Below, one piece after another: positions 11,665-37,570 of a stretch of DNA of 64,000 bases. Numbering within the stretch: the stretch's first letter is position 1; each line of letters opens with the position of its first letter. The stretch spans positions 1 to 64,000 of the forward strand of contig JANNXQ010000099.1 of assembly GCA_031409655.1 (NCBI GenBank), given 5' to 3'. The DNA is from Chthoniobacteraceae bacterium (lineage in GTDB: Bacteria; Verrucomicrobiota; Verrucomicrobiia; Chthoniobacterales; Chthoniobacteraceae). A program made the translations under genes and the position numbers. The notes below the pieces were generated by a model. The model saw only the letters and a list, made by a program, of their open reading frames with translations, was not told the DNA's origin and did no database searches.

Positions 11665-11669
11665 CTTCT

Positions 11670-13439
11670 ATGAAAAGCAACCTCCTCCTCCTTCTGGCAG
11701 CCAGTCTCGCCAGCGCCGCGCACCTCCATGCGCAGACCTTCTTCACCGCGACGCCGCGCTATCTCACGCCTTCGTGGCGGGGCACGGCGGGCACGGAGTT
11801 TTCCCATTGGGACGTGCTCTACTCGTCCTACGGCGATCCGCTCACGCCCGGCGACGGCTTGAACTATCCCGACTTCGCCGCGCCCAATGGCACCGGCGAT
11901 TTCGCCAGCGCCACGCCCGGCGCGATCGTCCCGGCCAATGCCAGCCCCGGCGATCCCTTCGCCTTCTGGCACACCGCGAATCCCACGCTGCGCCAGACGG
12001 GCACGAGTTCCGGCTTCATCGTCGGTCCCGGCACGGCCGGCAATCTCTACAGCTTCGCCGCGGCCACCCGTTACGAGATTGCCGACGCCACGCCTTTCAC
12101 CGCGGGCACCGTCGTCCTCCAGTGGCAGGCCGACGGGCAGCTCCTCGACTTCTCGACGCTCAAGCTCGTCGCGGGCGGCAACGAGTACGCGCCCACGAAT
12201 TTCGTCACGGAATACAAATCGAGCGGCTCGTCCTTTGGCGGCGTGACCAATCGCGCCGCAGCGCAGTGGGATCTCACCGGGCTCGGCATCACCGGCTACA
12301 CGCTGAAGATCGACGCGAACGGCAGCAGCAACAGCTTCCAGGAAGCGCGGCTCGACACCGCGCCCACCTATGTCGAGGCCGTGCCGAGTGCGCGTGCCCG
12401 CAGTGCGGCGAGCGGCCTCTGGAGTGAAAGCGCGAGTTGGGCGCCCGCGCTCGCGCCTTCCATCGGCGGCAATATCGCGATCACCACCGGCAGCGCGCTG
12501 ACGATCGACGGCGGGGTGCGCGAGATCGGCGAACTGCAACTCAGCGCGACCGGGAGCTACACCTTCGGCGCGAGTGGTGGCGGGGTTTTGAAAATCAACA
12601 GCGGCATCACTGCGACGCCGTCGAGCGCGACGACCTACGCCTTCAACACGCCAGTGCAATTCGGCAGCTACAACCTCACGATGCTGAACGCGCAGACGAC
12701 CGTCGCGTTTCAGGGCGGGGTCAGCGGCTCGGCGGGGATGTTCGTCGGCGGGGCAGGGCGCGTGATCTTCGAGGGCGCGAATACTTTCACCGGTCCGCTC
12801 TCCGTGGATGCCGACGCGACGGTGCTCGTGCATGGTTCGCTGAGCGGCAGCGGCGCGGTCACGCTGCTCGGTGGCACGCTGGGCGGCACGGGGACGATCA
12901 ATCGTCCGCTCACCCTTGACGGTGGCGACACTCTCGCGCCCGGGGCCAGCGTCGGCACGCTCACCACCGGCGCGCAGACTTGGGCCGCGGGCGGCAGGCT
13001 CGCGCTGGAGTTGCAAAACCCCAACGGCGTCGCCGGCACCGGCTGGGATTTGGTGAATATCAACGGCGCGCTTTCCATCACCGCGGACAGCGCCGGGCGC
13101 TTCACCCTCGCGCTTAGCACGCTGACTACTGGCGGCGTTCCGGGCGCGCTCGGTGGCTTCGATAGCGCGAATCCCTACGTCTGGAAATTCGCCGCGAGCA
13201 GTGGCGCGGGCGCGGCCATCAATAGCTTTGCCCCCACGGATTTTCTGATCGCCGCGAGCGGCTTCCAGAATGCACTCGGCGGCGGCAGCTTCAGCGTCAC
13301 GCGCACGGGCAACGATCTCGCGTTGCAATTCACCCCCGTGCCCGAGCCGCAGACTGGCGTGCTCGCCATCCTCGGTCTCGCGGCCTTTGCCGTGTGGCGC
13401 AATCGCACTGTGATCGCCGGTCACGATGTCCGCGACTGA
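11670..13439 (+). CDS. Secreted PEP-CTERM protein with autotransporter-associated beta-strand region
   Basis: Signal peptide MKSNLLLLLAASLASAAHLHA; G/T/S-rich; GAGRVIFEGANTFTG repeat, LGGTGTI...LAPGASVGTLT; C-terminal VPEP + hydrophobic helix + RNR. Confidence 0.9.
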   Translation: MKSNLLLLLAASLASAAHLHAQTFFTATPRYLTPSWRGTAGTEFSHWDVLYSSYGDPLTPGDGLNYPDFAAPNGTGDFASATPGAIVPANASPGDPFAFWHTANPTLRQTGTSSGFIVGPGTAGNLYSFAAATRYEIADATPFTAGTVVLQWQADGQLLDFSTLKLVAGGNEYAPTNFVTEYKSSGSSFGGVTNRAAAQWDLTGLGITGYTLKIDANGSSNSFQEARLDTAPTYVEAVPSARARSAASGLWSESASWAPALAPSIGGNIAITTGSALTIDGGVREIGELQLSATGSYTFGASGGGVLKINSGITATPSSATTYAFNTPVQFGSYNLTMLNAQTTVAFQGGVSGSAGMFVGGAGRVIFEGANTFTGPLSVDADATVLVHGSLSGSGAVTLLGGTLGGTGTINRPLTLDGGDTLAPGASVGTLTTGAQTWAAGGRLALELQNPNGVAGTGWDLVNINGALSITADSAGRFTLALSTLTTGGVPGALGGFDSANPYVWKFAASSGAGAAINSFAPTDFLIAASGFQNALGGGSFSVTRTGNDLALQFTPVPEPQTGVLAILGLAAFAVWRNRTVIAGHDVRD

Positions 13440-13460
13440 ACCGTGAGCGTATCCTCTTCC

Positions 13461-15698
13461 ATGCACCGCCTCCTCTTCGTCCTCGCCGCCACGCTCGCGC
13501 TCACCGCGCGGGCCGAACTCCCGCCGCTCCCGCAACCCGCGACCAGCTTCGGCGCCGCCATCTCCGGCGAATGGCTCTACGCCTACGGCGGCAACACCGG
13601 CAAGGCGCACGAATTCAATCGCGAGTGCGTGAAGGGCGACTTCTTCCGGCTAAGGCTGCCCGACGGTGCGGCGTGGGAAAAACTGCCCGGCGGCACCGCG
13701 CTCCTGAGCGTCTCGCTCGTCGCGTATGAGGGGAAAATCATCCGCATCGGCGGGATGAATGCGCGCAATGAAAAGGGCGCGAAGAACGATCTGCATTCGA
13801 CGGATGAAGTCGTGCAGTTCGATCCCGCCACGCAGCAGTGGACCGCGCTCCCTGCGCTGCCCGAGCCGCGCTCGAGTCACGATGCGGTGCTCGTCGGCGA
13901 TACGCTCTACGTCGGCGGCGGCTGGAAACTCGCGGGCGACGATGGCGAAGGCGTCCACGCTGCCTGGCAGCAGACTCTGCTCGCGCTCGATCTGCGCGCG
14001 CTGGAGCGTGGTTGGCGCTCCGTCGCGCAGACCTTCCAGCGTCGCGCGCTCGCCGCCGTCGCCGGTGGGGGAAAGCTGTGGTTTCTCGGTGGCATGGATG
14101 GCGAGGATGAGCCGTCGCGCGCGGTGGATTGGTACGAGCCGGCGACGGGAGCGTGGGGCAAAGGGCCGGACCTGCCCGATGGCTCGATGGCCGGCTTCGG
14201 CATCGCGGGTTGCGCGGCGGGCGGGCGCATCCTCGCGAGTCCGCTCTCGGGAAAAATCTCCGCGCTCAGCGCCAACGGTTCGCAGTGGGAGGAGATCGCG
14301 AAGCTCACCCCCGCGCGCTTTTTCCATCGCCTGCTCCCGCTCGCCGATGGCCGCGTGCTCGCCGTCGGCGGCTCGAATCGCCAGGGCCACGTGCAGACGC
14401 TCGAACTCGTCTCGCTCGACGCGAAGACTGCGCTGCTCCCCATCTCCAGCGGCACCGAACCAGCGCCGATCGCAGCCGCGAAACCACCGAGCGAGCCCAA
14501 CACCGGCGCGCCGTGGCCGCAGTGGCGCGGGCCGAATCGCGACGGCATCTCGACGGAAGCCGGGTGGCGCAAAGACTGGCCCGCAGAAGGACCGAAGGTC
14601 CTGTGGCGGGCGCAGGTGGGAGTCGGGATGAGTAGCAGCGTCGTCGCGGATGGCCGCCTCATCACGCAAGGCAACGATGGCGCGGGAAACGATCACGTCG
14701 TCGCGCTCGACGCCGCGACGGGCGCGGAACTGTGGCGCTTCACCCTCCCGTGCAAGACCGACTCCCACGAAATGCCGATCGTCCCGAGCGGCCCCGGGGC
14801 CACGCCCACCGTCACCGCGGGCCACGTCTTTGCGCTCAGTCGCGAGGGCGATCTGCTCTGCCTCGACGTGAACAATGGCCAGCCCGCGTGGCGGAAAAAT
14901 CTCGTCACCGATCTCGGCGGCAAACGCCCCGTTTATGGCTACGCGCAGAGTCCGCTGATCAGCGGTGGGCGGCTCTTCCTCGATCTCGGCGGCGCGAAAG
15001 ATTCCACCGCCGCACTCGATGCCGCGACCGGCGAAGTGCAGTGGCACGCCGGCAGCGGCGAGGCGGGCTACAGCGCCGCGCGCATTTTCGAACGCGATGG
15101 GCAGCGGCTCGTCGCGATGTTCAAAGGCGAAGCACTCGATGTCTTCGATCCCGCCGATGGCCGCGTGCTCTGGTCGCACCGCATCACCGGGCGCGATTTC
15201 ACGAACGCCGCGACGCCCGCCTTCGTCGGACACCGTGTGCTCGTGACGAATACCAGCGTCGAGATGGCCACCCTGCTCGATTGGGACGCCGGAGCCGCGC
15301 CGAATGTCCGCCCATCGTGGACGCACAAACAGTTCGCGCTCCTCTTCAACAGCGCCATCGCACACGACGGCTGCCTCTTCGGCTTCAACGAAAAGCGCCG
15401 CGGCCATCACGAGTTCACCTGCGTGGATGCGCAGACCGGCGAGACCCGCTGGGTCAGCGACGCCGTCCCCACGAGCACCTTCATCTTTGCCGATGGCCAC
15501 TGGATTTTCCTGACCCGCGAAGGCGAAGTGCTCCTCGCGCCCGCGACGGCGCGCGAACTGAAACCCACCGCACGTTTCAAAGCCCTGGAAGGAAAATGCT
15601 ACGCCACGCCGACGCTCGCCGCCGGCCGCCTCTCCGTCCGCGACAATACCGGCACCCTCGCCGTTTTCGATCTGCGACCAAGCTCGACGGCCCCATGA
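13461..15698 (+). CDS. Secreted Kelch-repeat + PQQ/BamB-like beta-propeller fusion protein
   Basis: Signal peptide; Kelch repeats (LYAYGG, LPEPRSSH..LYVGGG, WFLGG, VLAVGG); Pro-rich linker; WPQWRGPNRDG and ALDAATG.LW PQQ-like repeats. Confidence 0.88.
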   Translation: MHRLLFVLAATLALTARAELPPLPQPATSFGAAISGEWLYAYGGNTGKAHEFNRECVKGDFFRLRLPDGAAWEKLPGGTALLSVSLVAYEGKIIRIGGMNARNEKGAKNDLHSTDEVVQFDPATQQWTALPALPEPRSSHDAVLVGDTLYVGGGWKLAGDDGEGVHAAWQQTLLALDLRALERGWRSVAQTFQRRALAAVAGGGKLWFLGGMDGEDEPSRAVDWYEPATGAWGKGPDLPDGSMAGFGIAGCAAGGRILASPLSGKISALSANGSQWEEIAKLTPARFFHRLLPLADGRVLAVGGSNRQGHVQTLELVSLDAKTALLPISSGTEPAPIAAAKPPSEPNTGAPWPQWRGPNRDGISTEAGWRKDWPAEGPKVLWRAQVGVGMSSSVVADGRLITQGNDGAGNDHVVALDAATGAELWRFTLPCKTDSHEMPIVPSGPGATPTVTAGHVFALSREGDLLCLDVNNGQPAWRKNLVTDLGGKRPVYGYAQSPLISGGRLFLDLGGAKDSTAALDAATGEVQWHAGSGEAGYSAARIFERDGQRLVAMFKGEALDVFDPADGRVLWSHRITGRDFTNAATPAFVGHRVLVTNTSVEMATLLDWDAGAAPNVRPSWTHKQFALLFNSAIAHDGCLFGFNEKRRGHHEFTCVDAQTGETRWVSDAVPTSTFIFADGHWIFLTREGEVLLAPATARELKPTARFKALEGKCYATPTLAAGRLSVRDNTGTLAVFDLRPSSTAP

Positions 15699-16186
15699 AC
15701 GCCACCTCGGACACGCCGGTCGTGGCCATCTCGGTGACGCGCGAGATCCTGGAATATCGCATCGGCGCGGAGACCCGGCTCGTCGTGAACAGCGCAGAAT
15801 GTTTCCCGCAGGTCATCAAGCAGGCGCTGGCGGATAGCCCGGCCGCGACCTTCCTCGTGGAAGCTGTCGGTGGCTGGGAGACGGGCGTCGTCCGGGCGCT
15901 CCAGATGGCGCGCCTGCCTGTGGCCGTGGTCGAGAGCGGCGAGATCCAGCGGTACTTCGGGCTCGCGGAGCCGGAGAATGTGGACGCCGCGGTCGTGAGT
16001 CTTTACGCCCGGGCGATGTGGGAGACGCTCGGCCCGGCTGAGCGCGTCGAGCGTGTCGTCTCTGGCTACGCGGGGCGTCCACTGGTGAAGGGAAATTGGT
16101 GGACGCGCCTCTTTGGCCAGATGCGCTCCTCGCGACAGCGCCCGGCCGCCCGGTTGGAAGCACGTTTCCCCGCTCAATCCGGATAG
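15695..16186 (+). CDS. Stand-alone 163-aa protein resembling the IS110 transposase N-terminal DEDD (RuvC-like) domain, catalytically degenerate
   Basis: ATGA overlap with the upstream stop; GC-rich third codon positions; VVAISVT / FLVEAVGGWETGVVRALQMARLPVAVV / NVDAAVVSLYA parallel the IS110 motifs VGIDVS / VLEATGGYE..LV.AL..AGLPVAVV / DRIDA.VLA.FA. Confidence 0.7.
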   Translation: MNATSDTPVVAISVTREILEYRIGAETRLVVNSAECFPQVIKQALADSPAATFLVEAVGGWETGVVRALQMARLPVAVVESGEIQRYFGLAEPENVDAAVVSLYARAMWETLGPAERVERVVSGYAGRPLVKGNWWTRLFGQMRSSRQRPAARLEARFPAQSG

Positions 16187-16352: not shown

Positions 16353-19300
16353 ATGGAAACGCCGATGCCTCCCCCGACGCCACCACCTCGCCGTCCATCC
16401 GGCCCCCCGAAACCGCCCGAGCGACCGCAGCGGGTGGGGGTGCGCGCGGAGGCGACTTTCAACTCCGCGCTGGAGCGGCCGGTGGCAGAGCGTGAGGCGT
16501 TCATCGCGGAGGCTTGCGGTGCGGAAGCGGAGATGCACGCCGAAGTCTGCGCTCTGCTTGCGGCGCATGAGGCCGCGGGGGATTTCCTGAAAACGGACAC
16601 TCCGCTTTCGCCCGAAGCCGAGGAGCAGATGGCGCGGCTCAAGCCCGAGGAGGCGGGCGAGACGATCGGGCCTTACAAATTGCGCGAGCAGATCGGCGAG
16701 GGTGGCTTTGGCACGGTGTGGGTGGCGGATCAGGAGCGGCCGGTGCGGCGGCGCGTGGCGCTGAAGATCATCAAGATGGGGATGGACACGAAGGAGGTGA
16801 TCGCGCGCTTCGAACAGGAGAGGCAGGCGCTGGCGATGATGGATCACCCGAACATCGCGAAGATCCTCGACGCGGGCGTGACCCAGTGGGGGCGGCCGTT
16901 CTTCGTCATGGAGCTCGTGCGCGGGGTGAAGATCACGGAATACTGCGACGAGCAGCAGCTCTCGACGCGGGAGCGTGTCGAGCTGTTCATCACCGTTTGC
17001 CAGGCGGTGCAGCACGCGCACCAGAAAGGGATCATCCATCGCGACCTCAAGCCGTCGAACATCCTCGTGACGATCAACGACGGGAAGGCGGTGCCGAAGG
17101 TGATTGATTTCGGCGTGGCCAAGGCGACGCAGGGGCGGCTTACCGACGCGACGGTCTATACGCAGTTCCAGCAGATGATCGGCACGCCGCTCTACATGTC
17201 GCCCGAGCAGGCGGAGCTGACCTCGCTCGATATCGACACGCGCAGCGACATCTACTCGCTCGGCGTGCTGCTTTACGAATTGCTCACCGGCCACACGCCG
17301 ATCGAGCAGGACACGCTCGCGCGCGTCGGCCTGGATGAAATCCGGCGCCTCATCCGCGAGGTGGACCCGCCGCGGCCTTCGATGCGAATGAAGACGCTCG
17401 CCGGCAACGAACTCACCACGCTGGCGCAGCGTCGCCACACTGAACCCGCGAAGCTGCCCGGCACGATGCGCGGCGACATCGATTGGATCGTGATGAAGTG
17501 CCTGGAGAAAGATCGCGCGCGCCGCTACGACACGGCGAACGGTCTCGCCCTCGATCTCCAGCGGCACCTTAACAATGAGGTGGTCATCGCGCGTCCGCCG
17601 ACCACGGCCTACCTGCTCAGCAAACTCGTCCGGCGCAACAAGCTCGCCTTCGCCGCCGGCGCGGCCATCGCGGCGTCGCTCGTCATCGGCATCGCCGCCA
17701 GCGTGTGGCAGGCGGTGCGGGCGGAGCGCGAAGCGAAGCGCGCCGTCGCCGCGTTCGACGAACTGCGCGCGAGCGCCCCGGCCTTTGCCGAGCAGGCGCG
17801 GGCGCTGGCGACGCGGGAACAGTTCAGCGAGGCCATCGCGAAGCTCGACTACGCGATCAAGCTGCGGCCCGACGTGGCGGAGTATCTGGTGGCGAAAGCC
17901 GACCTGCTCCAGGGCGAGCTCAAGCTCGCGGAAGCCGCCGCTGTTTATCGCGAAGCGCTGCGCGTGAAGCCCGGCCTCGCGCGCGCCGAGGCTTCGGCAA
18001 AACTCTGCGACGAACTGCTCGCGGCGCCGCCGAACGCCGACGGCAAGCTCACCCGCGAAAACCTCGCCAAGCTGCACCTTGCGATGCAGCGGCAGCAGCG
18101 GCCCGCGGCGGAGCTCATGCCCGTGGCGCGACTGCTCGGCGAGGAGAAGAAGCTCCTCGTCGAATACTGGCTCGCGCGGCTCAAGGATCTGCCCGTGTCC
18201 GGTGAGCGGCCGCTTAAGGATCGCCTCACCGTGCGCGACGATGGCCGGCTCGCGCTCGATCTCAGCGACACCAAAGTCACCGACCTCTCGCCGCTCGCCG
18301 GCGCGCCGCTCGCGGCGCTGGACCTTTCGGAATGCAAAGAGCTGACCGACCTCTCCGCCCTGCGCGGTTTTGTTTTGCTCGAACTGAACGTCCGTGGAAC
18401 GAGGGTGGCGGACCTCACTCCGCTGCGGGAGATGCACTCGCTGGAGAAGCTGGAGTTGTCCGACAGCAAGGTGGCCGACCTCGCCGCGCTGAGCGCACTG
18501 CGGCTGAAAAGCCTCAACTTTCGAAACTGTCCGGTCAGCGACCTGACGCCGATCCGGATGATGCGCCTGGAGGAAATCATTCTGCGCGACACGCGCGTGG
18601 CCGACCTCTCGCCGCTCCTTGGCATGCCGATCAAAAGCATCGACCTCGCGTTTGCGCCGGTGCTGGACTTTTCGCCGCTCGCCCAGCTCCCGCTGGAAAA
18701 GTGTTACCTCCAGAGCAATCGGATCACCGACCTGGCGGTCCTGCGCGGCCGGCCGCTGAAGGAACTCGTCCTCTGGGGCTGCAACGCGGCGCGCAATTTC
18801 GCCGTCCTCGCCGAAATGCATTCGCTCGAACTCCTCCTGCTGCCCTCGCAGTATCGTTCCCTGCCGGAAAAGGATTACGAGGCGATTGGTTCGCTGCGCC
18901 GTCTACCAAAACTGCGGCAAATGGGGACGGACTACCTCACTGGCCTGGGCACCGCGGGCAACAATGTGTGGAGAAAGGCAGCGACCGGATCGGCAGACTC
19001 CCGCGGCGCCAACTACGTCGCCACGCCTTCGAAAGAGCTCTTCTGGCAGGATTGGGACCGTGAGCAGGCGTTCCTCCCGGCCCTACGCCAGAGCGGATTC
19101 AACTTCTCGCTCAGCAAGTATCCCAACGGCTTCTACTCCCTGGACATCCGCAGCCAACCGGTGCGGGACCTCTCCTTCCTCAAAGGCGCGCCACTGAGCG
19201 CCCTCTCGCTTTTGAAAACCGAAATCTCCGATCTGACTCCGCTCCGGGGCATGCCGCTCGAATACCTCCACTTGGGATGGAATCCGGTCAGCGATCTCAG

Positions 19301-20144
19301 TCCGCTGCGCGGCATGCCGCTGGAGCGGGTCTTCCTCACCGACACGAACGTCAGCGATCTCTCCCCGCTCGCCGGGCTGCCGCTCACCGATCTCTACATC
19401 GACGGTTGCGTGAAGGTGACCGATGTCGCGCCCCTCGCGGAAATTTCGACCTTGGAGAATCTCGTCTTTCCTCCGCAGGTGAAGAACATCGAGACGCTGC
19501 GCAAGCTGCCCAAACTGCGAAGACTGGGCCTGAAAGGCGTCGGCATGCAACCCGTGCTCCCGGACACCACCGCGGCGGAGTTTTGGCGGGAGTTCGACGC
19601 CCATGGCTGGATCCGGCGCTTGCGCGACACGGGGGTCAAGGTCAAGGCCTGGGAGCCACTGAAGGACGGCACCTGGAAGGTGGACCTCAGCGACTCCGCG
19701 ATCCAGGACCTCACCAGCCTGCAGGGGGCTCCGATCAGTGACCTCAATCTCATCGGTACGGCCGTCACGGATCTTGCCCCATTGCGCGGCATGCCCATCG
19801 CGGCGCTTCGGCTGCCCAAAACGATCGCCGACCTGAGTCCGCTCGCGGGGATGCCGCTCGAGTATTTACAAGCGGAATGGACTCGCGTGACCGACCTCAC
19901 GCCCCTTCGCGGAATGCCGCTGACCGACCTGAGGCTCTACTCCTCCACTGAACTCACGGACCTCTCGCCGCTCGCGGGGGTCAAACAGCTCCGCTATCTC
20001 GGTCTGCCCCCGAACGCGAAGAACCTGGATATCCTCCGCAACCATCCCAGCCTCAAACGGATCGGCTTCAGTTTTTTGGGAAGCGGCGAGCCCAATAAGA
20101 CTGCCGCGGAGTTTTGGCGGGAATACGACGCGAAGCGGAAATAG
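16353..20144 (+). CDS. Membrane Hanks-type Ser/Thr kinase with TPR-like and leucine-rich-repeat C-terminus
   Basis: IGEGGFGTVW, VALK, HRDLKPSN, DFG, GTPLYMSPEQ; TM helix LAFAAGAAIAASLVIGIAASVW; many DLSPLRGMPL-type LRRs. Confidence 0.95.
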   Translation: METPMPPPTPPPRRPSGPPKPPERPQRVGVRAEATFNSALERPVAEREAFIAEACGAEAEMHAEVCALLAAHEAAGDFLKTDTPLSPEAEEQMARLKPEEAGETIGPYKLREQIGEGGFGTVWVADQERPVRRRVALKIIKMGMDTKEVIARFEQERQALAMMDHPNIAKILDAGVTQWGRPFFVMELVRGVKITEYCDEQQLSTRERVELFITVCQAVQHAHQKGIIHRDLKPSNILVTINDGKAVPKVIDFGVAKATQGRLTDATVYTQFQQMIGTPLYMSPEQAELTSLDIDTRSDIYSLGVLLYELLTGHTPIEQDTLARVGLDEIRRLIREVDPPRPSMRMKTLAGNELTTLAQRRHTEPAKLPGTMRGDIDWIVMKCLEKDRARRYDTANGLALDLQRHLNNEVVIARPPTTAYLLSKLVRRNKLAFAAGAAIAASLVIGIAASVWQAVRAEREAKRAVAAFDELRASAPAFAEQARALATREQFSEAIAKLDYAIKLRPDVAEYLVAKADLLQGELKLAEAAAVYREALRVKPGLARAEASAKLCDELLAAPPNADGKLTRENLAKLHLAMQRQQRPAAELMPVARLLGEEKKLLVEYWLARLKDLPVSGERPLKDRLTVRDDGRLALDLSDTKVTDLSPLAGAPLAALDLSECKELTDLSALRGFVLLELNVRGTRVADLTPLREMHSLEKLELSDSKVADLAALSALRLKSLNFRNCPVSDLTPIRMMRLEEIILRDTRVADLSPLLGMPIKSIDLAFAPVLDFSPLAQLPLEKCYLQSNRITDLAVLRGRPLKELVLWGCNAARNFAVLAEMHSLELLLLPSQYRSLPEKDYEAIGSLRRLPKLRQMGTDYLTGLGTAGNNVWRKAATGSADSRGANYVATPSKELFWQDWDREQAFLPALRQSGFNFSLSKYPNGFYSLDIRSQPVRDLSFLKGAPLSALSLLKTEISDLTPLRGMPLEYLHLGWNPVSDLSPLRGMPLERVFLTDTNVSDLSPLAGLPLTDLYIDGCVKVTDVAPLAEISTLENLVFPPQVKNIETLRKLPKLRRLGLKGVGMQPVLPDTTAAEFWREFDAHGWIRRLRDTGVKVKAWEPLKDGTWKVDLSDSAIQDLTSLQGAPISDLNLIGTAVTDLAPLRGMPIAALRLPKTIADLSPLAGMPLEYLQAEWTRVTDLTPLRGMPLTDLRLYSSTELTDLSPLAGVKQLRYLGLPPNAKNLDILRNHPSLKRIGFSFLGSGEPNKTAAEFWREYDAKRK

Positions 20145-20170
20145 CGCGCGCGCACCTCCACTCACTGCCC

Positions 20171-23100
20171 ATGAGCACCCAGCCGGATCGTGGACCGACG
20201 GAGCCCGCACCGTCCAGCAGCCGCTGGGCGCTGGCGATTTTTGCGTCCGGCGAAGAGGGCCGCGAGGCACTGCGCGAACTGGCGGGGAGCTACGATTACT
20301 GCGTCTATGCCTGGTGGCGCCGCGCGGGGCGCGAGGCGGAGCCCGCGATGGCCGCGACGATCGCTGCTTTCGATCGTTGGCTGGGCGCGTCGCCGCCGCA
20401 GCGCACTGACTCGGGCAGCGAGCGGATGCGCACGTGGCTCGCGGAGCGGCTCGTCGAGCTGAACGAAGAAGACCTGGAGGCGCCGGTCGCGCCGTCGATC
20501 GCCCTCGATCCCGCGTGGTCCGAATCGCGTTACGCGGATGAACCGCCCGGCGAGCCGGACGCCATCTTCCAGCGCCGCTGGGCGCTGACGGTGCTGGAAT
20601 TCACCGTGGCGACGATGCGCGCGGAATATGCCGCGCGCGGGGAGGAGGCGCTCTTTCCCGAGCTGCTGCCCTTCGCCGGTTTCGCTTCGGGTGAAGACGA
20701 TCGCTACGCGGGCGCGGCGGAACGCACCGGCCGCACGGTCGGCGCGATGCACAAGGAGGTTTACGATTTCCGCCAACGCCAGCGCGAGCTGCTGCTTTAT
20801 TTTGCCGGCGACACGCTGCTCGATCCCGAGGAGGCGGAGAGCGAGATCACCGCGCTGCTCTGCGCCTGCGATGCTCCGGGACCGGAGGCCTCGGCGGCCC
20901 GGCTCCCAACCGAGATCGGCCATCTGCCCCCGGATCAAATGCTCTCGCGGGCAATGCAAAGCGTGCGCATGACCAGAAGCGGCGCGGATGGCTGGCAGCC
21001 GCCCACGGTCGCGGAGGCGGCGCGCCTTTTCCCACAGTATGAAGTGAGTGCGCTGCTCGGGCGCGGCGGCATGGGCGCCGTTTACCAGGGGCGGCAGACG
21101 GAGCTCGACCGACTCGTCGCGATCAAACTCCTGCCGCTGGAGGTGAGTGTGGACCGCGACTTCGCCGATCGTTTCCGCCGCGAAGCGCGCGCCATGGCGA
21201 AGCTGCAGCATCCGAACATCATCGACGTGCATGACTTCGGCACGACCGCCGAGGGGCATCTCTACTTCGTCATGGAATACGTGGACGGGACGAATCTCGA
21301 CGCGATGATCCGCGGCCCGGGCCTCGAGCCGGCGCAGGCGCTGCACATCATCGGCAGCGTCTGCGATGCGCTCGCCTACGCGCATGCGGAAGGCGTGGTC
21401 CACCGCGACATCAAGCCGGCCAATGTGATGGTGAGCAAAAAGGGCCGGGTGAAGGTCGCGGATTTCGGCCTCGCGCGGCTCGCCGATGCGGAAGCAGAGC
21501 AGCTCGGCCACACCGTCACCGGCACGGTGATGGGCACGCCGGATTACATGGCGCCGGAGCAAAAGCGCGGGATGAATGTCGATCACCGCGCCGACATCTA
21601 CAGCCTCGGCGTGATGCTCTACGAAATGCTCTGCCGCGAAGTGCCGCAGGGCATTTTCGATCCGCCGAGCCACCGCGTGGCCGTGGATTCGCGCGTCGAT
21701 CAGGTGGTGATCAAGGCGATGCAGCAGCAGCCCGACCGGCGGTATCAATCCACGCAGGAGATGAAGGCGGATGTGGACGCGGCGGGCACGCCGCAGCCCA
21801 AAGCGCTCGCCCTCGCCCGTCTGCCGCTGGGCGGGATGAGCCGGGCGATGACCATGCTCGCGCCCGGAACTGCGCCGCGATCGAAGAAGCGGCCGATCTT
21901 CGCGGGTCTGAGTTTTCTGGCCATCGGCGCGGCGGCACTTTCCTGCCTCCAGCCGTGGAAGAAGAGCGCGCCACCGAGCCCATCGCCTGCTCCGCAAATG
22001 GCCGCGTCCCCGACCGGGACGGGCAACCCTGGCGCTCTCACCAAGACCGCAGCTTTCGGCCCGTGGCAGCCGCTCTTCACCGAGGCGGAATGGAAGGAGA
22101 CCGTGCCGGGCCAGCGCGAGGTCGTGGATGGCCGCTTGCACTTGCTCGGCCCCGCTGTGGAGAAACCGCAATCCGCCGCGGATGGCGCCATCCGTGCCCG
22201 GATTCAGTATCAACCGGGGTCGAAGGCCATGGGCTTCACCGCTCGCGTGTCGGACGTGGGTCGGTATAAGCTTTCAATCGTGAACGACCGCAGCCTTGGG
22301 CTTCGTTTTTTCGGCGGTGCCAGATCGTCCAGCGCGAACATGCACAAGCTCGGGGACTACTACCTCCCAAAGCCCCTCCAGCCCGGCGACACGCTGTTGC
22401 TCGAACTGCGCCTGCAAGGCGACCGCCTGATTGTGCTCGTGGATGGCGCGGTGATCATCGATGCGCGCGACTCGCGCCTCACCGCTCCCGGTGAATGGGG
22501 TATCACCGCGGCTGACGGCTGGTTCGAGTCCGTGGAAGTGCAGACGCCGCTGCCCGCGCCCGCCGACGGCTGGGAAGACCTCCTCGCCAAACTCACCCCC
22601 GCCGTCGTCGCGCAGACCGGCCACGGGTGGACCCTGAAAGACGGCGAGCTTTTCAGCCCGGACACGAAATGGGCGACGCTGCCGCTGCCCGTGCAACTGT
22701 CCGGCATCAGCTACCGGGTGCGCGTGAAGCTGCGGCAACTGCCCTCGAAAGATGTTTTCCACATCGTCCTCCCCGTCGCGGACCGGATGTGCGGGTTCGA
22801 GTTGGAAGGATGGGGCCGCAATTACAGCGGCCTGGGCATGGTGAATGGGAAGCTGAACAAAGACGCGCCCGGAGTCGTGGTGGGCAAGCAGGTGAAGGAC
22901 ACCGTGCCGCACGATCTGGAAGTGACCGTGCGCCTCGACGGCGCGAACGCGACCATCACCACCACGCTCGACACCCGCCCACTCTACGCATGGAGCGGCC
23001 CCACCGCCGCCCTCAGCCAGGATAAGTATTGGGCCACCACCGCGCCCGGCGCCCTCGCCCTCGGCACCTACGTCGGCGGCTGGGCGGTCTCCGCGGTAAA

Positions 23101-23728
23101 AGTGAAGCGACTGGACGCGGGCGACGCCACGGAGGACGCGCGGCCGGCTCTCGCATCCGACGGCTGGGAAGACCTCGTCGCCCAGCTCACGCCCGAGCGG
23201 CTCAAGCAGAACGGCGACGGCTGGCTCCGGGAGGGCGACGCGCTGCGCAGCCCGAACAAACTCTTTGGAAGGCTGCCCCTCGGCCACTTTGCCGGCAGCA
23301 GCTATCGGGTGCGCGTCAAGCTGCGGCAACTCATCCCGAAGGACGGTTTCGCCATCATGCTGCCGGTCGGGGATCGCCTCGTCGGGTTCTCGCTCGATGG
23401 CCTGCCCAAGGACGGATATTTTACCGGCCTGAATGCCGTCGAGGGCAAGCGGGGCAAAGACCTGCCCGGAAGCATCCTCGGCCAGGTGGTGAAGGACACC
23501 ACGACGGCGCACGAGCTGGAAGTGACCGTCCGCATCGACGGCGCGCAAGCGAGCATCTCCTCCACCTTCGACGCCCGCCCGCTCTACGCCTGGACCGGCC
23601 CCATCGCCGCCCTCAAGCCGCCTTGGGCTGAACCCGCGAAGTTTGCGGGCACCCTCACCCTGCTCAGCTTCGCGGATGATTGGCTGGTCTCCGAGGTGAA
23701 GGTGAAACGGCTGGACTCGGGGAAGTAG
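20171..23728 (+). CDS. ECF-sigma-like domain fused to Ser/Thr kinase, TM helix and three beta-sandwich (DUF1080/lectin-like) domains
   Basis: N-terminal SRWAL...EALRELAGSY..CVYAWWRR...IFQRRWALTVLE...RAEY...LFPEL.PF...YA.AA...G.TVGAMH.EVY.FRQR.REL; kinase LGRGGMGAVY, HRDIKPAN, DFGLA, GTPDYMAPEQ; duplicated DGWEDL domain. Confidence 0.85.
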   Translation: MSTQPDRGPTEPAPSSSRWALAIFASGEEGREALRELAGSYDYCVYAWWRRAGREAEPAMAATIAAFDRWLGASPPQRTDSGSERMRTWLAERLVELNEEDLEAPVAPSIALDPAWSESRYADEPPGEPDAIFQRRWALTVLEFTVATMRAEYAARGEEALFPELLPFAGFASGEDDRYAGAAERTGRTVGAMHKEVYDFRQRQRELLLYFAGDTLLDPEEAESEITALLCACDAPGPEASAARLPTEIGHLPPDQMLSRAMQSVRMTRSGADGWQPPTVAEAARLFPQYEVSALLGRGGMGAVYQGRQTELDRLVAIKLLPLEVSVDRDFADRFRREARAMAKLQHPNIIDVHDFGTTAEGHLYFVMEYVDGTNLDAMIRGPGLEPAQALHIIGSVCDALAYAHAEGVVHRDIKPANVMVSKKGRVKVADFGLARLADAEAEQLGHTVTGTVMGTPDYMAPEQKRGMNVDHRADIYSLGVMLYEMLCREVPQGIFDPPSHRVAVDSRVDQVVIKAMQQQPDRRYQSTQEMKADVDAAGTPQPKALALARLPLGGMSRAMTMLAPGTAPRSKKRPIFAGLSFLAIGAAALSCLQPWKKSAPPSPSPAPQMAASPTGTGNPGALTKTAAFGPWQPLFTEAEWKETVPGQREVVDGRLHLLGPAVEKPQSAADGAIRARIQYQPGSKAMGFTARVSDVGRYKLSIVNDRSLGLRFFGGARSSSANMHKLGDYYLPKPLQPGDTLLLELRLQGDRLIVLVDGAVIIDARDSRLTAPGEWGITAADGWFESVEVQTPLPAPADGWEDLLAKLTPAVVAQTGHGWTLKDGELFSPDTKWATLPLPVQLSGISYRVRVKLRQLPSKDVFHIVLPVADRMCGFELEGWGRNYSGLGMVNGKLNKDAPGVVVGKQVKDTVPHDLEVTVRLDGANATITTTLDTRPLYAWSGPTAALSQDKYWATTAPGALALGTYVGGWAVSAVKVKRLDAGDATEDARPALASDGWEDLVAQLTPERLKQNGDGWLREGDALRSPNKLFGRLPLGHFAGSSYRVRVKLRQLIPKDGFAIMLPVGDRLVGFSLDGLPKDGYFTGLNAVEGKRGKDLPGSILGQVVKDTTTAHELEVTVRIDGAQASISSTFDARPLYAWTGPIAALKPPWAEPAKFAGTLTLLSFADDWLVSEVKVKRLDSGK

Positions 23729-23865: not shown

Positions 23866-24423
23866 ATGCACGACGTCACGCGCCTCCTTGCCGCCATCGG
23901 GCGCGGGGATGCGCGTGCCGGGGAGGAATTGCTCCCGCTCGTCTATGCGGAACTGCGCCAGCTCGCCCGCGCGAAAATGGCCCGCGAGCAGTCGGGGCAC
24001 ACATTGCAAGCGACAGCGCTGGTGCATGAGGCCTGGTTGCGGCTGGGCGAGCAGCGCTTTGAAAATCGCGCCCATTTCTTCGGCGCCGCCGCCGAGGCGA
24101 TGCGCCGGATCCTCATCGAGGGCGCGCGCCGCAAGCTCGCCGCAAAGCACGGCGCCGGCGCCGAGCACGTGGACGTCGACGAAATCGAGATCGCCGCACC
24201 GACGCCAAAGGACGATGAACTCCTTGCCGTCCACGAAGCCCTCGATGCACTCGCCGCGCATGATCCGCGCAAGGCGGAACTAGTGAAGCTCCGCTATTTT
24301 GCCGGCCTCTCGATCGACGAAGCCGCCGACGTGCTCGGCATCTCCGCGCCGACGGCGAAGCGTGACTGGACTTACGCCCGGGCGTGGCTTTTCCGGGAGA
24401 TCCGGAACTCGGCCTCCGGTTAG
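23866..24423 (+). CDS. ECF sigma factor, kinase-associated type (TIGR02999-like)
   Basis: DVTRLL, LLPLVYAELRQLA, HTLQATALVHEAWLRL, AAAEAMRRILI, LRYFAGLSIDEAA..LGIS..TAKRDW. Confidence 0.93.
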   Translation: MHDVTRLLAAIGRGDARAGEELLPLVYAELRQLARAKMAREQSGHTLQATALVHEAWLRLGEQRFENRAHFFGAAAEAMRRILIEGARRKLAAKHGAGAEHVDVDEIEIAAPTPKDDELLAVHEALDALAAHDPRKAELVKLRYFAGLSIDEAADVLGISAPTAKRDWTYARAWLFREIRNSASG

Positions 24424-25832: not shown

Positions 25833-27476
25833 ATGAACTGGCCTACGCTGAGCCCCGCGCGCGTGGGGTGGTTCCTGCTCGTCTGCTTGATCGCCGCGCC
25901 GCCTCTGCGGGCGCAGACGGTGAGTACGGTGCGTGAGACGGAGTTTCGCTCGCGCTGGGTGGATCAGCAGGTGGATCGGCCCGCTCAGGAGTTCCAGCCG
26001 GGGAGCGGAGCTTTGGATGGCGACGGAGACTTCACCACGCGAGTGGGGGACACCCTGCGGTCGTTTTTTCGCACCGGGCCGGTGGTGCTGCGAGCAGGGC
26101 TGAGCGCCGGATTTGAATACTCGAATCAACAGACCGTGGCCATTGGCAATCCACCGGCGAGCGAGGCCAGTTTTTTCGTCGCCCCGGTGGTTGCATTGTT
26201 CTATGACCGCGAGGTTGGGCCGTGGACGGTGTCGGCGCGCTACTCGGTCGGATATCTCTACTACTTCGATCGCGAGTATCTGGCTTTGGGGGGGCGGCAA
26301 GCGACGCCAGATACCACCCAGACCGTGGTCGTCGAGCCCGCGCAGCCAGAGCGGACGGTTCTCGTGCCGACGACTCCGCTCACGAATCTCGGCGGGATCA
26401 ACCAGCGCGTGCCCCAGTTTCGCACCGTGACGATTCCGGCGGTGCCGGCGGTTACCGAGGAGGTCACGGTTCCCGGCCTCAAGGCAGATCCACGCCGCAA
26501 TTCGCTCCCGTCGCAGACTCTCGGCCTCGATATCGCGCTCCAGTATTCCCGGCTGAAACTACGCTCCAACGGCGGTGGGTCTTACGGGAGCGGCTTTGAT
26601 ATCGAGCGTAGCGGACAATCAAACCGCCTCTCTCTATTTGAGACGCTCACGGCGGATTATCAACTCACGGAATATGTCCGGGCCGGGGTCGGATTCAATG
26701 CAGGATACGAAGGCAATGAGGGTGGGGCGGGAACGCAGGACTCGAGCACGCGTTTCAGCGGGTCGCTCTACGTGGACTACTTTCTCACGGGTAAGTCGCG
26801 CCTTCGGCTGGAAGCGAGCGCCGGGCGGGAGGCGCAGACGTTAGGCAATGGTGATCCTTTGGAGCGCACCTACTCCCAAGCGTTGCTCCGGTGGAATTTT
26901 CTCCCCACCGAGAAACTTTCCTTCGAGGTGGGGCTGGGGGTCGGCGTCCTCGACAGCTCCGGCGCGGCGACAACGGTCACGAACCAAGATGGTGGGCTGC
27001 GTGCGGTGTATTCGGTCAGGGCAAACTACGCGCCAACCAGCAAGATTGCAGCGGCATTTTATTTCGGATTGGAAACCACCTCCACGACTCCGGATCTCTC
27101 GCTCTCGTTGGACTGGCGCCCGCGCGAAACCACAGCCTTCAGGGTTTCACTATACCAGCTCAGCGGCGTTTCCACGATCTCCTTTTCCCAGAACCGTGTG
27201 TCCCGCGGGTTTCTGGTTCTCGCCCAGCAGCGCATCCTGCAGCGGGCCATGTTCAGTATCTCTGGCGGTGTGGAGGAATTTGAAGACCTCGACGTGGCTC
27301 AGGTGTCGCCGAATCAGGAGCCATATTCCTTCCTCGGCGCCGGATTCACCTATGAATTCAGCCGTTGGCTTTCCTTCGATTCGCAATATCGAACCGCTAC
27401 GGGGACCACTTCGGCAGGCCAGACTTCGACCTCCCGCGAAACCCGGGCGTCGGTCGGTTTGCGGTTGACTTTCTAA
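25833..27476 (+). CDS. Outer-membrane beta-barrel protein associated with polysaccharide export
   Basis: Signal peptide, alternating amphipathic strands, terminal SVGLRLTF; first gene before wza/wzc-like genes. Confidence 0.75.
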   Translation: MNWPTLSPARVGWFLLVCLIAAPPLRAQTVSTVRETEFRSRWVDQQVDRPAQEFQPGSGALDGDGDFTTRVGDTLRSFFRTGPVVLRAGLSAGFEYSNQQTVAIGNPPASEASFFVAPVVALFYDREVGPWTVSARYSVGYLYYFDREYLALGGRQATPDTTQTVVVEPAQPERTVLVPTTPLTNLGGINQRVPQFRTVTIPAVPAVTEEVTVPGLKADPRRNSLPSQTLGLDIALQYSRLKLRSNGGGSYGSGFDIERSGQSNRLSLFETLTADYQLTEYVRAGVGFNAGYEGNEGGAGTQDSSTRFSGSLYVDYFLTGKSRLRLEASAGREAQTLGNGDPLERTYSQALLRWNFLPTEKLSFEVGLGVGVLDSSGAATTVTNQDGGLRAVYSVRANYAPTSKIAAAFYFGLETTSTTPDLSLSLDWRPRETTAFRVSLYQLSGVSTISFSQNRVSRGFLVLAQQRILQRAMFSISGGVEEFEDLDVAQVSPNQEPYSFLGAGFTYEFSRWLSFDSQYRTATGTTSAGQTSTSRETRASVGLRLTF

Positions 27477-27513
27477 GTCCTATCACGATCTTCCAATCTC
27501 CTCGAACCCCTTC

Positions 27514-28233
27514 ATGAAAGGCACCTTCCCATATCTTGCTGCCTTTGGAGCGGCCCTGCTTTTCGTGGTCGCCCCAGCTCCCGCGCAGGCACCCCGGGCT
27601 GTAGCCGTCGCCCCGGTCTCCGCTCCCGCGCGCAGCGAGTCGCGGATCGAAGTCCCTTCTTTCGTTTCGAGCGAAAATCGGACAGCTCCGACTTCCAACG
27701 GTTCCGGGGGTGGAATCATATCCTCCGCCGCGGGGGACTATGTGCTTTCCACGGCCGATACCCTCGAGATGAGCATCTTCCGTGAGCCAGACCTGACGAC
27801 GCGGAGCAAGGTCGGGAGTGACGGGACGGTGCAACTCCCGCTGATCGGGGAGGTGAAAGTGTCCGGACTGACCATTCGCGAAGCTCGTGAAATCATCCGC
27901 AAGCGCTACGATGCCGACTACCTCGTTGATCCGCAGATCTATCTGAATCTGGTCGATTTTGCTCAACGCAAGTTCACCATCCTCGGGCAGGTGATGCGGC
28001 CGGGTTCGTATGAATTTCCGGGCGGTCGGCCGCTCGGGCTCCTTGAGGCCGTCGGCATTGCCGGCGGATTCACCCGGAGCGCTGACAAGGGGAAGGTGCT
28101 TGTCCGGCGCTCGGCCGATGGCGGCGCAGAGGGTTCCATCAAGGTCAATGCCAAGAAACTCTCCGACAGCAGCACTCAGTCCTTTAACGTTCTGCCCGGC
28201 GACGTCATCACGGTGGGGGAGAGTTGGTTTTGA
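27514..28233 (+). CDS. Polysaccharide export protein (Wza/OPX family, Poly_export + SLBB)
   Basis: YVLSTADTLEMSIFREPDL...VGSDGTVQLPLIGEV, GQVMRPG.Y, AGGFT, PGDVITV. Confidence 0.88.
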   Translation: MKGTFPYLAAFGAALLFVVAPAPAQAPRAVAVAPVSAPARSESRIEVPSFVSSENRTAPTSNGSGGGIISSAAGDYVLSTADTLEMSIFREPDLTTRSKVGSDGTVQLPLIGEVKVSGLTIREAREIIRKRYDADYLVDPQIYLNLVDFAQRKFTILGQVMRPGSYEFPGGRPLGLLEAVGIAGGFTRSADKGKVLVRRSADGGAEGSIKVNAKKLSDSSTQSFNVLPGDVITVGESWF

Positions 28234-28294
28234 TCTCCGTGCCGGAATATCACGATCGGCTGGCGTCCCCGCCCGTCGCGCTTTTTGTTCGTCC

Positions 28295-30457
28295 ATGAAG
28301 GATCAAGACCTCACCGCATTGCTGGCCCAGGCATCGGGTGCTCCCGCCGAGTCCACGGATTGGCGGGAGTACTATCATGCCGTCCGCCAGCGGCTTTGGA
28401 TCCCCCTTCTTTGCCTCGTGCTCGGCGGGATCTTCGCTGCGATCTACATGCTCCGGCAGGAGACGGTCTTCCGCGCGCGTGCCGTCCTCTTCCTCGAGCA
28501 GGAGCAGAGCCAAGTGCTGAACAACGTCAAAGGTGTCCGCGAGGAGCAAATTCGCAGCCTCGACATGATCAATACCATCGTCGATCTGCTCGGCAGTTAC
28601 TCCTTCGCGCTCCGCGTCAGTGAGCGGATGAAACTCAGCGAAGACCCGGCCTTCACCCGCCCATTGAAAACGATCGAGGAAGGAAGGCGCCCGACCTCCG
28701 CGGATGCCGCTGGCACGCTCCTGCGCATGGTCAACGCATCCTATCGGAAAAACACCCGTTTGATCGACGTCTTCGTCACCCACCCGGATGCGACGGTCGC
28801 CACGAAACTCGCGAATGCCTTCGCCGACGAATATCTCCGCTACATTTTCGAAAAGAAGACCGAGGCCAATCGCTCCGCCAATCAATTCCTCGTCGAGGAA
28901 GCTGATCGACTTGGGAAGAAGATGCGCGTTTCCGAAGAAGGCATGCAGAGTTTCCGGGAACGCGAACGAGTGGCCTCGCTCGAAAACATGCAGGAGTCCG
29001 CCCAGGTCCGTCTCACGGAGCTCACTGCAAAGATTTCTACCTTGGAGCAAAAGACCTATCAGCTCGATCTGGATATGAAAGTCGTGCGGAGCAATCCGAA
29101 GGATACGGACGAACTCTTGAGGCTTCCGAGCGTCGTCATCGAGCCCAAGATCGCCCGCCTCACCGAGGCGATCGCCGACCGGGAGCGTGACCTTCTCGTC
29201 ATCAGCCAGCGCTATCGCGCTCGCCATCCGACCTACATCGCCCTCCGCACTCAGTTGGACTCTCTGGTCGCTGACCGCAGATCCGCCCTGCAAAACGTCC
29301 TCGTGCTCCTGGAAAACGAACAGAAGCACAATCAGAGTCAGGACGAAGATTTGAAGAAATCGCGCGACGATCAAGAGGAGGAGTTGCTCAAGATCACGAG
29401 AAAAGGGGTCGAGTTTAATCACCTCAAGCGGGAGTCCGAAGCCGACCGGCTCATGTACGACTCCGTGATGGGGCGCGTGAAAGAAATCGACCTTACCAAG
29501 GGCCTCACGGATTCCCCCATTCGCATCCACGAGGCCGCCATGGGGGCTGGTCCGATTGGTGCAAATCTCGTGAAAGTCTATGCAATTGGCCTGATCTTGG
29601 GTCTGCTCGGCGGGGTCGGTCTGGCCATTGGGCTCAATGCGCTCGATTCCTCGATCAAAACCATCGAGCAAGCCGAGCATGCGACCGGGTTGCCGGTACT
29701 CGCCGCTGTCTCCCGCAAAAAAGGCCGGTCCGCCTCGGGGGCGAAAGGCTTGGACGTCTTCGCCAATCGCAGCGGTCTTATCGCGGAAGCGTTCCGCTCG
29801 CTCCGAGCCTCCCTCTCCATGCTCGCGGAGGCCGACGCCCGGCACACCTTCCTCTTCACCAGTGCCGTCCCGTCCGAGGGCAAGACCTTTACCAGTTCCA
29901 ACTTTGCCGCCTCTCTCGGTCAGCAAGGCTTCCGCACTCTTTTGATCGATGCCGATCTCCGCAAGCCCGCCGTCTCCCCGTTGTTTTTCGGCGACCATCG
30001 CAATCCAGGACTGAGCGACGTGCTCGCCGGTCGCATTGCCCTCTCCGAAGCAATCAACCCCTCGGAACTCGAAAACCTTTCCGTGCTCACTGCCGGCAGC
30101 CGCGCTCCCGACCCCGCCGAACTCCTCTCCACCAAGCGGATGAGGGACCTCCTCGAGGAAGCCGGCCGACTCTACGATCGTGTGGTCATCGACACCGCCC
30201 CGACGCTCGCCGTGAGCGACGCCTTGCTCCTCGCGCCGCAGGCCGATGTCGTCTGTCTGGTCATCCGTTCCTGTTCCACTTCCCGGAAATCGGTGGCCCG
30301 TGCGGTGAGATCCCTGTCCGACGCCGGTAGCCGCCCGGCCGGGATCATCTTGAATTTTATCCCGAGCGGCTCCAATCAAGACTCCTACTACTACTCCGGC
30401 AAGACCTACGGTTCCTATGGCGCCAAAGGTGTTTACGGAGCTGGCACTCATCAATAG
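28295..30457 (+). CDS. Polysaccharide co-polymerase / BY-kinase (Wzc/GumC-like)
   Basis: Two TM helices flanking coiled coils; AEAFRSLR, SAVPSEGKT, LLIDADLR, VIDTAP; Tyr cluster SYYYSGKTYGSYG. Confidence 0.93.
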   Translation: MKDQDLTALLAQASGAPAESTDWREYYHAVRQRLWIPLLCLVLGGIFAAIYMLRQETVFRARAVLFLEQEQSQVLNNVKGVREEQIRSLDMINTIVDLLGSYSFALRVSERMKLSEDPAFTRPLKTIEEGRRPTSADAAGTLLRMVNASYRKNTRLIDVFVTHPDATVATKLANAFADEYLRYIFEKKTEANRSANQFLVEEADRLGKKMRVSEEGMQSFRERERVASLENMQESAQVRLTELTAKISTLEQKTYQLDLDMKVVRSNPKDTDELLRLPSVVIEPKIARLTEAIADRERDLLVISQRYRARHPTYIALRTQLDSLVADRRSALQNVLVLLENEQKHNQSQDEDLKKSRDDQEEELLKITRKGVEFNHLKRESEADRLMYDSVMGRVKEIDLTKGLTDSPIRIHEAAMGAGPIGANLVKVYAIGLILGLLGGVGLAIGLNALDSSIKTIEQAEHATGLPVLAAVSRKKGRSASGAKGLDVFANRSGLIAEAFRSLRASLSMLAEADARHTFLFTSAVPSEGKTFTSSNFAASLGQQGFRTLLIDADLRKPAVSPLFFGDHRNPGLSDVLAGRIALSEAINPSELENLSVLTAGSRAPDPAELLSTKRMRDLLEEAGRLYDRVVIDTAPTLAVSDALLLAPQADVVCLVIRSCSTSRKSVARAVRSLSDAGSRPAGIILNFIPSGSNQDSYYYSGKTYGSYGAKGVYGAGTHQ

Positions 30458-34377: not shown

Positions 34378-34587
34378 ACGGATGTCGCGACTGATTGTAT
34401 TGCTCGACAATCGCTCCGCGATTGCATCCCGCGATCAAGTTTTGGTGTGTCACTTCATCGTTCATCCCCCCGATCCTGAGCACCCAAAGCAGCGGGTTGC
34501 GCAAAGAGTTGCGCAGCTAACGACACCGTCTATCTGATTCAGAGATCGTCAGGCGCGGCACAATCCCCGATAACGAGCCCCCCAGTC

Positions 34588-37384: not shown

Positions 37385-37570
37385 TTGGACGCGTTCCTCT
37401 GCGTCCGAAGCGGCATGTGGAGCGTTCCGGAAAGCCCGCTCTAACCCACCAAAAACGAACGACTGGTCGATGAAGTGCTTGCCAGTGGGCAACGCAACTT
37501 CGGCGATTCAAGCAGCAAAAGGCGGGAATTTGTTTTTCTGCCTACGCCTCTCGATTTCCAAAAAACCTCG

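Follow-up and report, generated by a model that had tools for sequence, protein, structure and literature searches.

A gene at positions 20171-23728 (forward strand) of the 64,000-nucleotide stretch analysed here, referred to as the window, encodes a membrane Ser/Thr kinase that begins with a domain derived from an ECF sigma factor. The domain keeps the sigma fold but looks incapable of sigma function, and it is still under purifying selection. It is shown to descend from an ECF encoded upstream of this kinase family, and to have been fused to the kinase by the loss of one in-frame stop. Erosion of the sigma domain predates the fusion, an order of events that the initial annotation had not foreseen. 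With a probability of roughly 0.45, the pseudo-sigma regulates its own kinase as a cap or docking module in cis, relieved by autophosphorylation.

The reading frame is uninterrupted from the ATG at 20171 to the stop at 23726-23728. Its 1185 amino acids are arranged as pseudo-sigma, linker, Ser/Thr kinase, transmembrane (TM) helix and ectodomain, and the same layout is found in homologues. The initial annotation had described an ECF-sigma-like domain joined in frame to an intact membrane Ser/Thr kinase; the single ORF at 20171-23728 bears this out, and all the sequence motifs listed there are found in it. The extent given at the time ends with the kinase, at 21790, and has to be corrected: the TM helix (aa 575-593) and an ectodomain of 560 aa lie further on.

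The sigma-derived domain covers aa 15-235 (20213-20875) and comprises sigma2 plus sigma4-like helices, as seen with phmmer, an AF2 model, VIA and Atlas features. The linker that follows (aa 236-289, 20876-21037) was once the N-terminal extension of the kinase gene. At loci where the two genes are split, the separate kinase gene opens with the same sequence, and the linker also resembles the start of the kinase at C177, elsewhere in the genome. Three linker positions, Ser264, Thr268 and Thr279, are conserved, with Ser/Thr in 93-98% of 54 rows.

The Hanks-type Ser/Thr kinase domain (aa 290-545, 21038-21805) is of the RD type and has all catalytic motifs: G-loop 297-304, Lys319, Glu338, HRD 411-413, DFG 431-433, and APE to 463. 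Pfam places PF00069 (Pkinase) at aa 290-511 (E 5.9e-53), and the best Foldseek matches of the domain are to PknB (E 2e-19). HRD, DFG and APE are present in 26 of 26 fused genes. The single TM helix (21893-21949) follows a basic RSKKR stretch and has a mean hydropathy of 1.96; a comparable helix is seen in 54 of the 55 family proteins scored. Given its motifs and one TM helix, the protein is a Hanks-type receptor Ser/Thr kinase of predicted activity.

The extracytoplasmic region (22046-23725) consists of about three beta-rich units with an internal repeat (E 1e-57), units 2 and 3 being 52% identical over 187 aa. A Pfam search with these ~560 aa gave no match. Their language-model (Atlas) features lie at 0.95-0.96 to PF06439 clusters, and the resulting likeness to DUF1080 / 3-keto-disaccharide hydrolase domains is a lead only. 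A model of 533 residues (pTM 0.73) came without an error matrix and gives no measure of domain packing.

The sigma-derived domain and its working surfaces

Direct searches leave the N-terminus unnamed. Residues 1-250 match 0 Pfam families and no sigma model of NCBIfam, where the only hit is YebG (E 0.17); the domain does not match the Sigma70_r2, r4_2 or TIGR02937 models, and among alignment members compared with sigma models, 5 of 25 reach only E 0.034. The HMM search proposed in the initial annotation thus fails as a direct match, while sigma similarity is recovered through paralogues. With phmmer, aa 1-250 find 16 further ORFs in this genome, the best at E 2.9e-28. The two best of these, at C194 and C177, are stand-alone ECFs that both match Sigma70_r2 above cut-off, which makes the sigma ancestry solid.

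Structure points the same way. The AF2 model of the domain has a pLDDT of 93.5, with sigma2 and sigma4-like helices both confident. Compared by VIA with 48,161 chains, it has ECF sigma2 at all of ranks 1-5 (Z 6.4-7.2; leading rows Z 7.2, rmsd 2.4-2.7 over 76-79 residues), scores that are middling, agree with the sequence evidence and are insufficient alone. Atlas features of the domain lie at 0.96-0.97 to clusters bearing Sigma70_r2. Searching with a profile of the domain returned 11,386 representatives, in which ECF-type proteins of 240-250 aa rank below the eroded clade. As in ECFs, the domain is made of sigma2 and sigma4 only, in a sigma fold. The same profile found 1 chance match among PDB sequences (E 1.1), and Foldseek with the domain model found none at E<=0.001, AlgU being first at E 0.36.

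To compare working surfaces, 233 domains were aligned; after 10 fragments and 4 duplicates had been dropped, the comparison was between 83 fused domains, 111 canonical stand-alone ones and 25 that are eroded but stand alone. "Fused" denotes a kinase or long tail in frame, and takes in 3 long kinase-less proteins and 2 broken or cut loci. The canonical set comes mostly from the best 150 of the 11,386 profile matches, and one divergent canonical protein was reassigned by hand.

Region 2 had been called eroded on account of PAMAATIAAF and a missing KRGG, and alignment to stand-alone paralogues confirms it. PAMAATIAAF (aa 58-67, 20342-20371) stands in place of DAEDLTQxFF, aligning to the DAEDLTQGFF of these paralogues, and the KRGG segment is absent. 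The DxxD residues of this motif bind the beta' clamp (PMC8999054, PMC8103513, PMC13147305; articles are cited by PMC number for the part of their text that was available). The core-binding Asp4 is found in 6/83 fused against 111/111 canonical domains, and Gln7 in 4/83 against 107/111. The KRG segment is present in 0/83 fused and 93/111 canonical domains; canonical and eroded domains were separated by the sigma2.4 segment, so this count is circular between those two sets, though not for the fused one. The segment has a median of 43 residues in fused and 52 in canonical domains (9 shorter), and none of the fused domains has kept the basic end of sigma2.4.

The DNA-reading surface is altered as well. 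Asp199 (20765-20767), mapped through a canonical paralogue to M. tuberculosis SigE, occupies the sigma4.2 site equivalent to E. coli sigmaE R176, a residue that bonds the -35 G and is called conserved across group IV sigmas (PMC1540707). At this site, which reads the -35 element, Arg or Lys stands in 109/111 canonical domains and in 1/83 fused ones, while Asp or Glu occupies it in 79/83 fused and 0/111 canonical domains. Mean net charge is -11.7 in fused and -0.6 in canonical domains, and the helix-turn-helix (HTH) region is 11-38 residues shorter in 6/83 fused domains. Of the two options raised in the initial annotation, a pseudo-sigma gains support from Asp199, the acidity and the HTH shortening on top of the region 2 erosion. 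Some sigma-like surface persists, because the R171-equivalent position is still Arg or Lys in 60/83 fused domains and Thr is found at DxxD position 4 in 32/83.

Despite its ECF43-like neighbour (below), the domain is not ECF43: it has no position-3 Thr and no PF07638 or TIGR02999 match. The ECF43 phosphosite at position 3 is Ser or Thr in 8/83 fused domains and Met in this protein. Somewhere in the four DAED positions, Ser or Thr occurs in 44/83 fused domains; this protein has none there. Thr63 was considered as an ECF43-like phosphosite and rejected, being motif position 6, where 85/110 canonical proteins also have Ser or Thr.

Loss of these surfaces has not meant loss of constraint. In 26 fused genes compared by the Nei-Gojobori method, the domain has a median dN/dS of 0.29 over the 285 of 325 pairs that were unsaturated and so measurable; the kinase has 0.23 over 288 pairs. 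The 12 closest fused pairs give 0.11-0.45. The pairs are non-independent, and GC-rich DNA makes this method a rough one. The domain evolves at ~1.75 times the kinase rate. Among five close orthologues of the stand-alone eroded genes, dN/dS is 0.12-0.23. The sigma2.4 segment is fixed at 43 residues in most fused members. Residues not seen in canonical proteins have become near-invariant, among them Trp48, Trp49, Trp70, Trp89, Trp116, Pro76 and Asp214.

Occurrence and origin of the fusion

The host family consists of bacteria of soil and freshwater. Searching the family at 1e-35 found matches in 36 of 151 genomes. Of the 30 loci listed, 17 are in one frame (in 17 genomes, including the source), 10 are stand-alone, 2 are frameshifted and 1 lies at a contig edge. 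The same fusion, which the initial annotation had suggested looking for in other genomes, is therefore in frame in at least 17 of the 151. The frameshifts fall inside the kinase at L011 and inside the domain and linker at L017; these loci are either pseudogenes or assembly errors. Among the named carriers are Chthoniobacter and Chthoniobacteraceae MAGs, the cultured Chthoniobacter flavus Ellin428, and two MAGs labelled Akkermansiaceae and Luteolibacter. Of 400 other genomes of the phylum searched at 1e-45, 5 matched, all in frames of 249-267 aa, and 0 were fused. Among database proteins of 651-2074 aa, the only size class searched (best 8000 candidates scored), all 55 other homologues of aa 10-260 carry Pkinase.

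An assembly or frameshift artefact is ruled out by contigs across the junction, by the fused homologues and by the in-frame fusions in other family genomes, C. flavus included. The reads around the junction had been named as a point to check; contigs do cross it, and neither a stop nor a frameshift splits two genes. A contig of run X2 (record 10) spans 20088-21327 with 0 differences and 0 gaps; X2 and the possible source run, X1, come from one study. Related-strain contigs from two other studies are gap-free over 20631-20960 and 20851-21044.

The C. flavus fusion (L077:5902-7815) stops a few residues past the TM helix and has no ectodomain. Beside the fusion, its genome has an eroded pair still encoded as two genes, and 7 more matches, of which the two inspected are canonical pairs. 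Ectodomains of fused genes vary (FGE-sulfatase, lectin C of the C-type, LRR, DUF1080, NHL), and such free variation is expected for receptors. Fusion genes are often in tandem, in 2-4 copies. Arrays of 2-4 fusion genes with differing ectodomains are found at L036, L037, L038 and L039, and at L036 two fusion genes lie between an ECF43-like gene and another kinase.

The source genome has a second fusion, with an LRR ectodomain, at G000:C265:2481-6248 (-), locus L033. Its HTH region is ~38 residues shorter and its kinase is degenerate (altered G-loop, HGD for HRD, short activation segment), so that this copy is possibly a pseudo-sigma on a pseudokinase. Four database proteins (P0022, P0053, P0054, P0055) begin at an internal Met of region 2.3; their starts are probably mis-called, hiding the first 85 residues. 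A fusion of an intact ECF was also sought: of the 9 longer homologues found for a canonical paralogue, 1 (P0209) includes a kinase, yet both its sigma4 end and its kinase end read as if out of frame. P0209 is a probable frameshift product, and that search is weak as evidence of absence.

The order of events can be read from the eroded genes that still stand alone. These retain Asp4 in 1/25 cases, KRG in 0/25 and the sigma4.2 Arg in 11/25. A kinase lies directly downstream at 15 of the 16 distinct loci with context, the exception being L078, which has no kinase within 6 kb. At 8 of the 10 junctions read, a set that includes L022-L030, the kinase ATG is in frame, 9 nt after the sigma stop, and one in-frame stop plus 9 nt splits sigma and kinase. 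To judge from these junctions, read-through would yield the fused product. At L047 and L049 an eroded sigma-kinase pair has identical flanking genes.

When 86 domains were placed on a tree, the eroded forms grouped with the fused ones on a single branch (SH-aLRT 99); the neighbours of this branch, in no settled order, include the C177 and C194 paralogues. The fused label requires 4 changes on the tree, at least 2 of them forced by strong branches, and a single clade of all 36 fused rows is rejected (p-AU 2e-5; quick tree, LG+G4). Because the fused forms are not one clade and erosion is already present in stand-alone genes, erosion came first. The same lack of a single fused clade means that there was either more than one fusion event or a later reversal.

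The extant series comprises canonical pair, eroded pair, fusion and HTH-less fusion. Its first three stages coexist in C. flavus Ellin428, a cultured organism in which the partnership of sigma and kinase is open to experiment.

Possible roles of the domain

Polymerase and DNA surfaces have been removed and the remainder kept, which points to a surface serving the partnership with the kinase. Since the domain is conserved despite having lost its grip on DNA and polymerase, it is probably now a kinase regulator. In the mechanism proposed, the protein would be a single-pass receptor Ser/Thr kinase with an N-terminal pseudo-sigma. Selection would preserve the ancestral sigma-kinase partnership, and if that partnership has been kept, the domain would now act on its own kinase. 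That the domain acts on the kinase is suggested by the strict linkage of the two together with the loss of the other surfaces.

The domain may be a cap or docking module in cis, as pseudo-substrate or adaptor. A ligand, here probably a carbohydrate, would bind the variable ectodomain and lead to autophosphorylation of the activation loop and the linker Ser/Thr. This would relieve the cap, and the kinase would then phosphorylate other proteins. Within this subclade, the adjacent ECF43-like sigma would be the obvious candidate substrate. Observations that count against this mechanism include the C. flavus fusion without an ectodomain, the kinase-less L078, the faster evolution of the domain than of the kinase, the residual sigma-like surface, and an ECF43-like gene near only 1 of 24 fused loci (below). 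Complex prediction for a natural split pair (the eroded sigma of L091 and its kinase) scored 0.01 against a mark of 0.32, and gives no answer.

The domain could instead act in trans, much as PhyR does. Once the kinase is active, the dead sigma, exposed on ligand binding, would be a decoy that titrates an inhibitor of the canonical ECF paralogues, a form of sigma mimicry driven by a Ser/Thr kinase. The titrated partner would possibly be the N-termini of the paralogues' own kinases, and release would free true sigma factors. PhyR is a precedent for a non-transcribing sigma-like domain fused to a phosphorylation module (PMC8999054). The genome has ~14 canonical paralogues with the same fold and many common core residues, and in C. 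flavus the 7 further matches accompany fused and eroded copies. Still, this reading is unlikely. The available text of PMC7826278 describes an anti-sigma for no kinase-associated ECF group except ECF267, the canonical parent ECF is found within 6 kb at 0 of 24 fused loci (many contigs being short), and the surface has diverged through gained Trp and acidic charge. If it were true, receptor arrays with swapped ectodomains would route many signals into the cell's ECF network, and pseudo-sigmas would be recognised as a conserved class, much as pseudokinases are, of which one culturable organism has both the stand-alone and the fused stage.

Gained acidity and conserved aromatics suggest a new binding surface. 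With it the domain might be a phospho-adaptor serving a third protein, or might act as an acidic competitor, at either RNA polymerase or some DNA-binding protein. Either role is improbable: the neighbourhoods inspected hold no conserved third gene, and the classic core-binding residues are the very ones lost.

About as improbable is that the domain is a structural passenger: read-through would have captured a dead sigma, which persists only because it must fold harmlessly for the kinase. One base change suffices for fusion, the HTH deletions, the degenerate C265 copy and the two frameshifted loci would fit such a history, and domain dN exceeds kinase dN. Stand-alone eroded genes could be lost freely, though, and their dN/dS nevertheless stays low; in addition, length is fixed and new residues have turned invariant.

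Weakest is the other option of the initial annotation, a working one-component sigma tethered to the membrane, phosphorylated in cis, released by proteolysis and reading an unusual promoter: its sigma2 and sigma4-like helices are modelled confidently, ECF43 sigmas without DAED are activated by Thr phosphorylation (PMC8999054, PMC13147305), the membrane-tethered ECF IutY is released by proteolysis (PMC8999054) and 44/83 fused domains have Ser/Thr within the DAED positions, but it is contradicted by the lost core- and DNA-binding residues, the -35 Arg turned Asp/Glu in 79/83, the sigma2.4 basic end deleted in all, the HTH shortened in six members, the net charge of -11.7 and a phosphosite that is Ser/Thr in only 8/83, with no Ser/Thr in this protein, and is very doubtful.

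Known systems and neighbourhood

PMC7826278 (Casas-Pastor 2021) describes the ECFs of kinase-associated groups as neighbours of their kinase genes. That ECFs and kinases are normally separate neighbours, as the initial annotation had stated, holds for the canonical paralogues in this genome, which are full-length and mostly beside kinases. In ECF59-ECF62 and ECF217, an ECF stands beside a membrane Ser/Thr kinase with no anti-sigma, as it does here (PMC7826278). Their kinase position, +1 (or -2), is also that of the canonical paralogues and of 15/16 eroded stand-alone genes; the present gene differs in having its kinase fused. An N-terminal zinc finger is present in ECF62 kinases and also in several of the kinases next to canonical paralogues here. 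Compared by their descriptions, however, those groups are 100% Planctomycetes, separate genes with intact motifs, whereas the present domain is from Verrucomicrobiota, eroded and fused.

ECF43 sigmas with a kinase (EcfP-PknT, EcfK-PknS) share with the fusion an uncharged DAED site and a Hanks partner with a variable ectodomain. In the ECF43 sequences described, a conserved position-3 Thr (88%; sites of QTTA type) restores the charge and the DNA-reading residues are kept, whereas the domain of this protein is without both.

PhyR, of the ECF15 partner switch, likewise has a non-transcribing sigma fold on a phosphorylation module. It is soluble, with a receiver Asp and the anti-sigma NepR, whereas here the module is a membrane Ser/Thr kinase with no anti-sigma known. 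The present protein has no receiver domain, and its gene is flanked by one for a kinase and one for an ECF43-like sigma rather than by a NepR/EcfG locus. PhyR appears in the VIA list at rank 48 (Z 4.8), and no homology is claimed.

ECF57, IutY and SCO4117 likewise combine, in a single chain, a sigma domain with a TM helix on its C-terminal side; unlike in the fusion, the sigma still works and no kinase lies between it and the membrane. PknB-type Hanks kinases share the kinase fold and motifs, TM helix and extracellular sensor. The fusion differs from them in its sigma-derived N-terminus of 235 aa and a DUF1080-like rather than PASTA ectodomain, and it scores below the NF033483 cut-off.

Planctomycetes ECFs capture downstream genes as extensions (PMC7671368), and no kinase fusion is among those described in the available text of that article. 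The available supplement of PMC7826278, searched by term, mentions neither a kinase fusion nor Chthoniobacter. PMC11032199 and its supplement, in the parts searched by term, list kinase architectures without a sigma domain; a Pfam-based survey of this kind would miss it. Being invisible to Pfam and NCBIfam, the domain leaves its proteins annotated as plain kinases, missed by ECF and kinase censuses alike. A literature search with subscription journals largely outside its coverage found no published account of such a fusion. While every component has been described before, their combination seems to be new to the literature, and so does the pseudo-sigma lineage. How kinase-associated ECFs that retain DAED are controlled is called an open question (PMC8999054).

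The upstream neighbour (16353-20144, forward strand) is a Ser/Thr kinase with a TPR and LRR region, ending 26 nt before the fusion gene. Downstream (23866-24423, forward strand) lies an intact ECF43-like sigma (PF07638, TIGR02999) with QATA at the DAED position, a type of site covered by a motif rule in PMC13147305; it is a candidate substrate of the kinase. An ECF43-like gene adjoins the fusion in the window, at L059 and at L104, and lies within 6 kb at only 1 of 24 fused loci (many contigs being short); the output proposed above therefore does not apply generally. At L104 an ORF between the fusion and the ECF43-like gene (L104:13396-15252, -) has a partial match (60 bits) to an ECF43-like protein.

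Scanning for promoters and terminators gave 0 promoter-like sites and 6 terminator-like sites against 7.4 expected. Further along the window, 34001-46000 has a GC content of 0.53-0.56 against ~0.64 around it and is probably an acquired polysaccharide locus; genes at 25833-30457, upstream of this stretch, resemble polysaccharide export proteins. Upstream of the kinase cluster, 11610-16186 encodes a PEP-CTERM protein, a 751-aa fusion of Kelch and PQQ beta-propellers, and a short ORF that weakly matches the N-terminus of an IS110 transposase (E 0.1).
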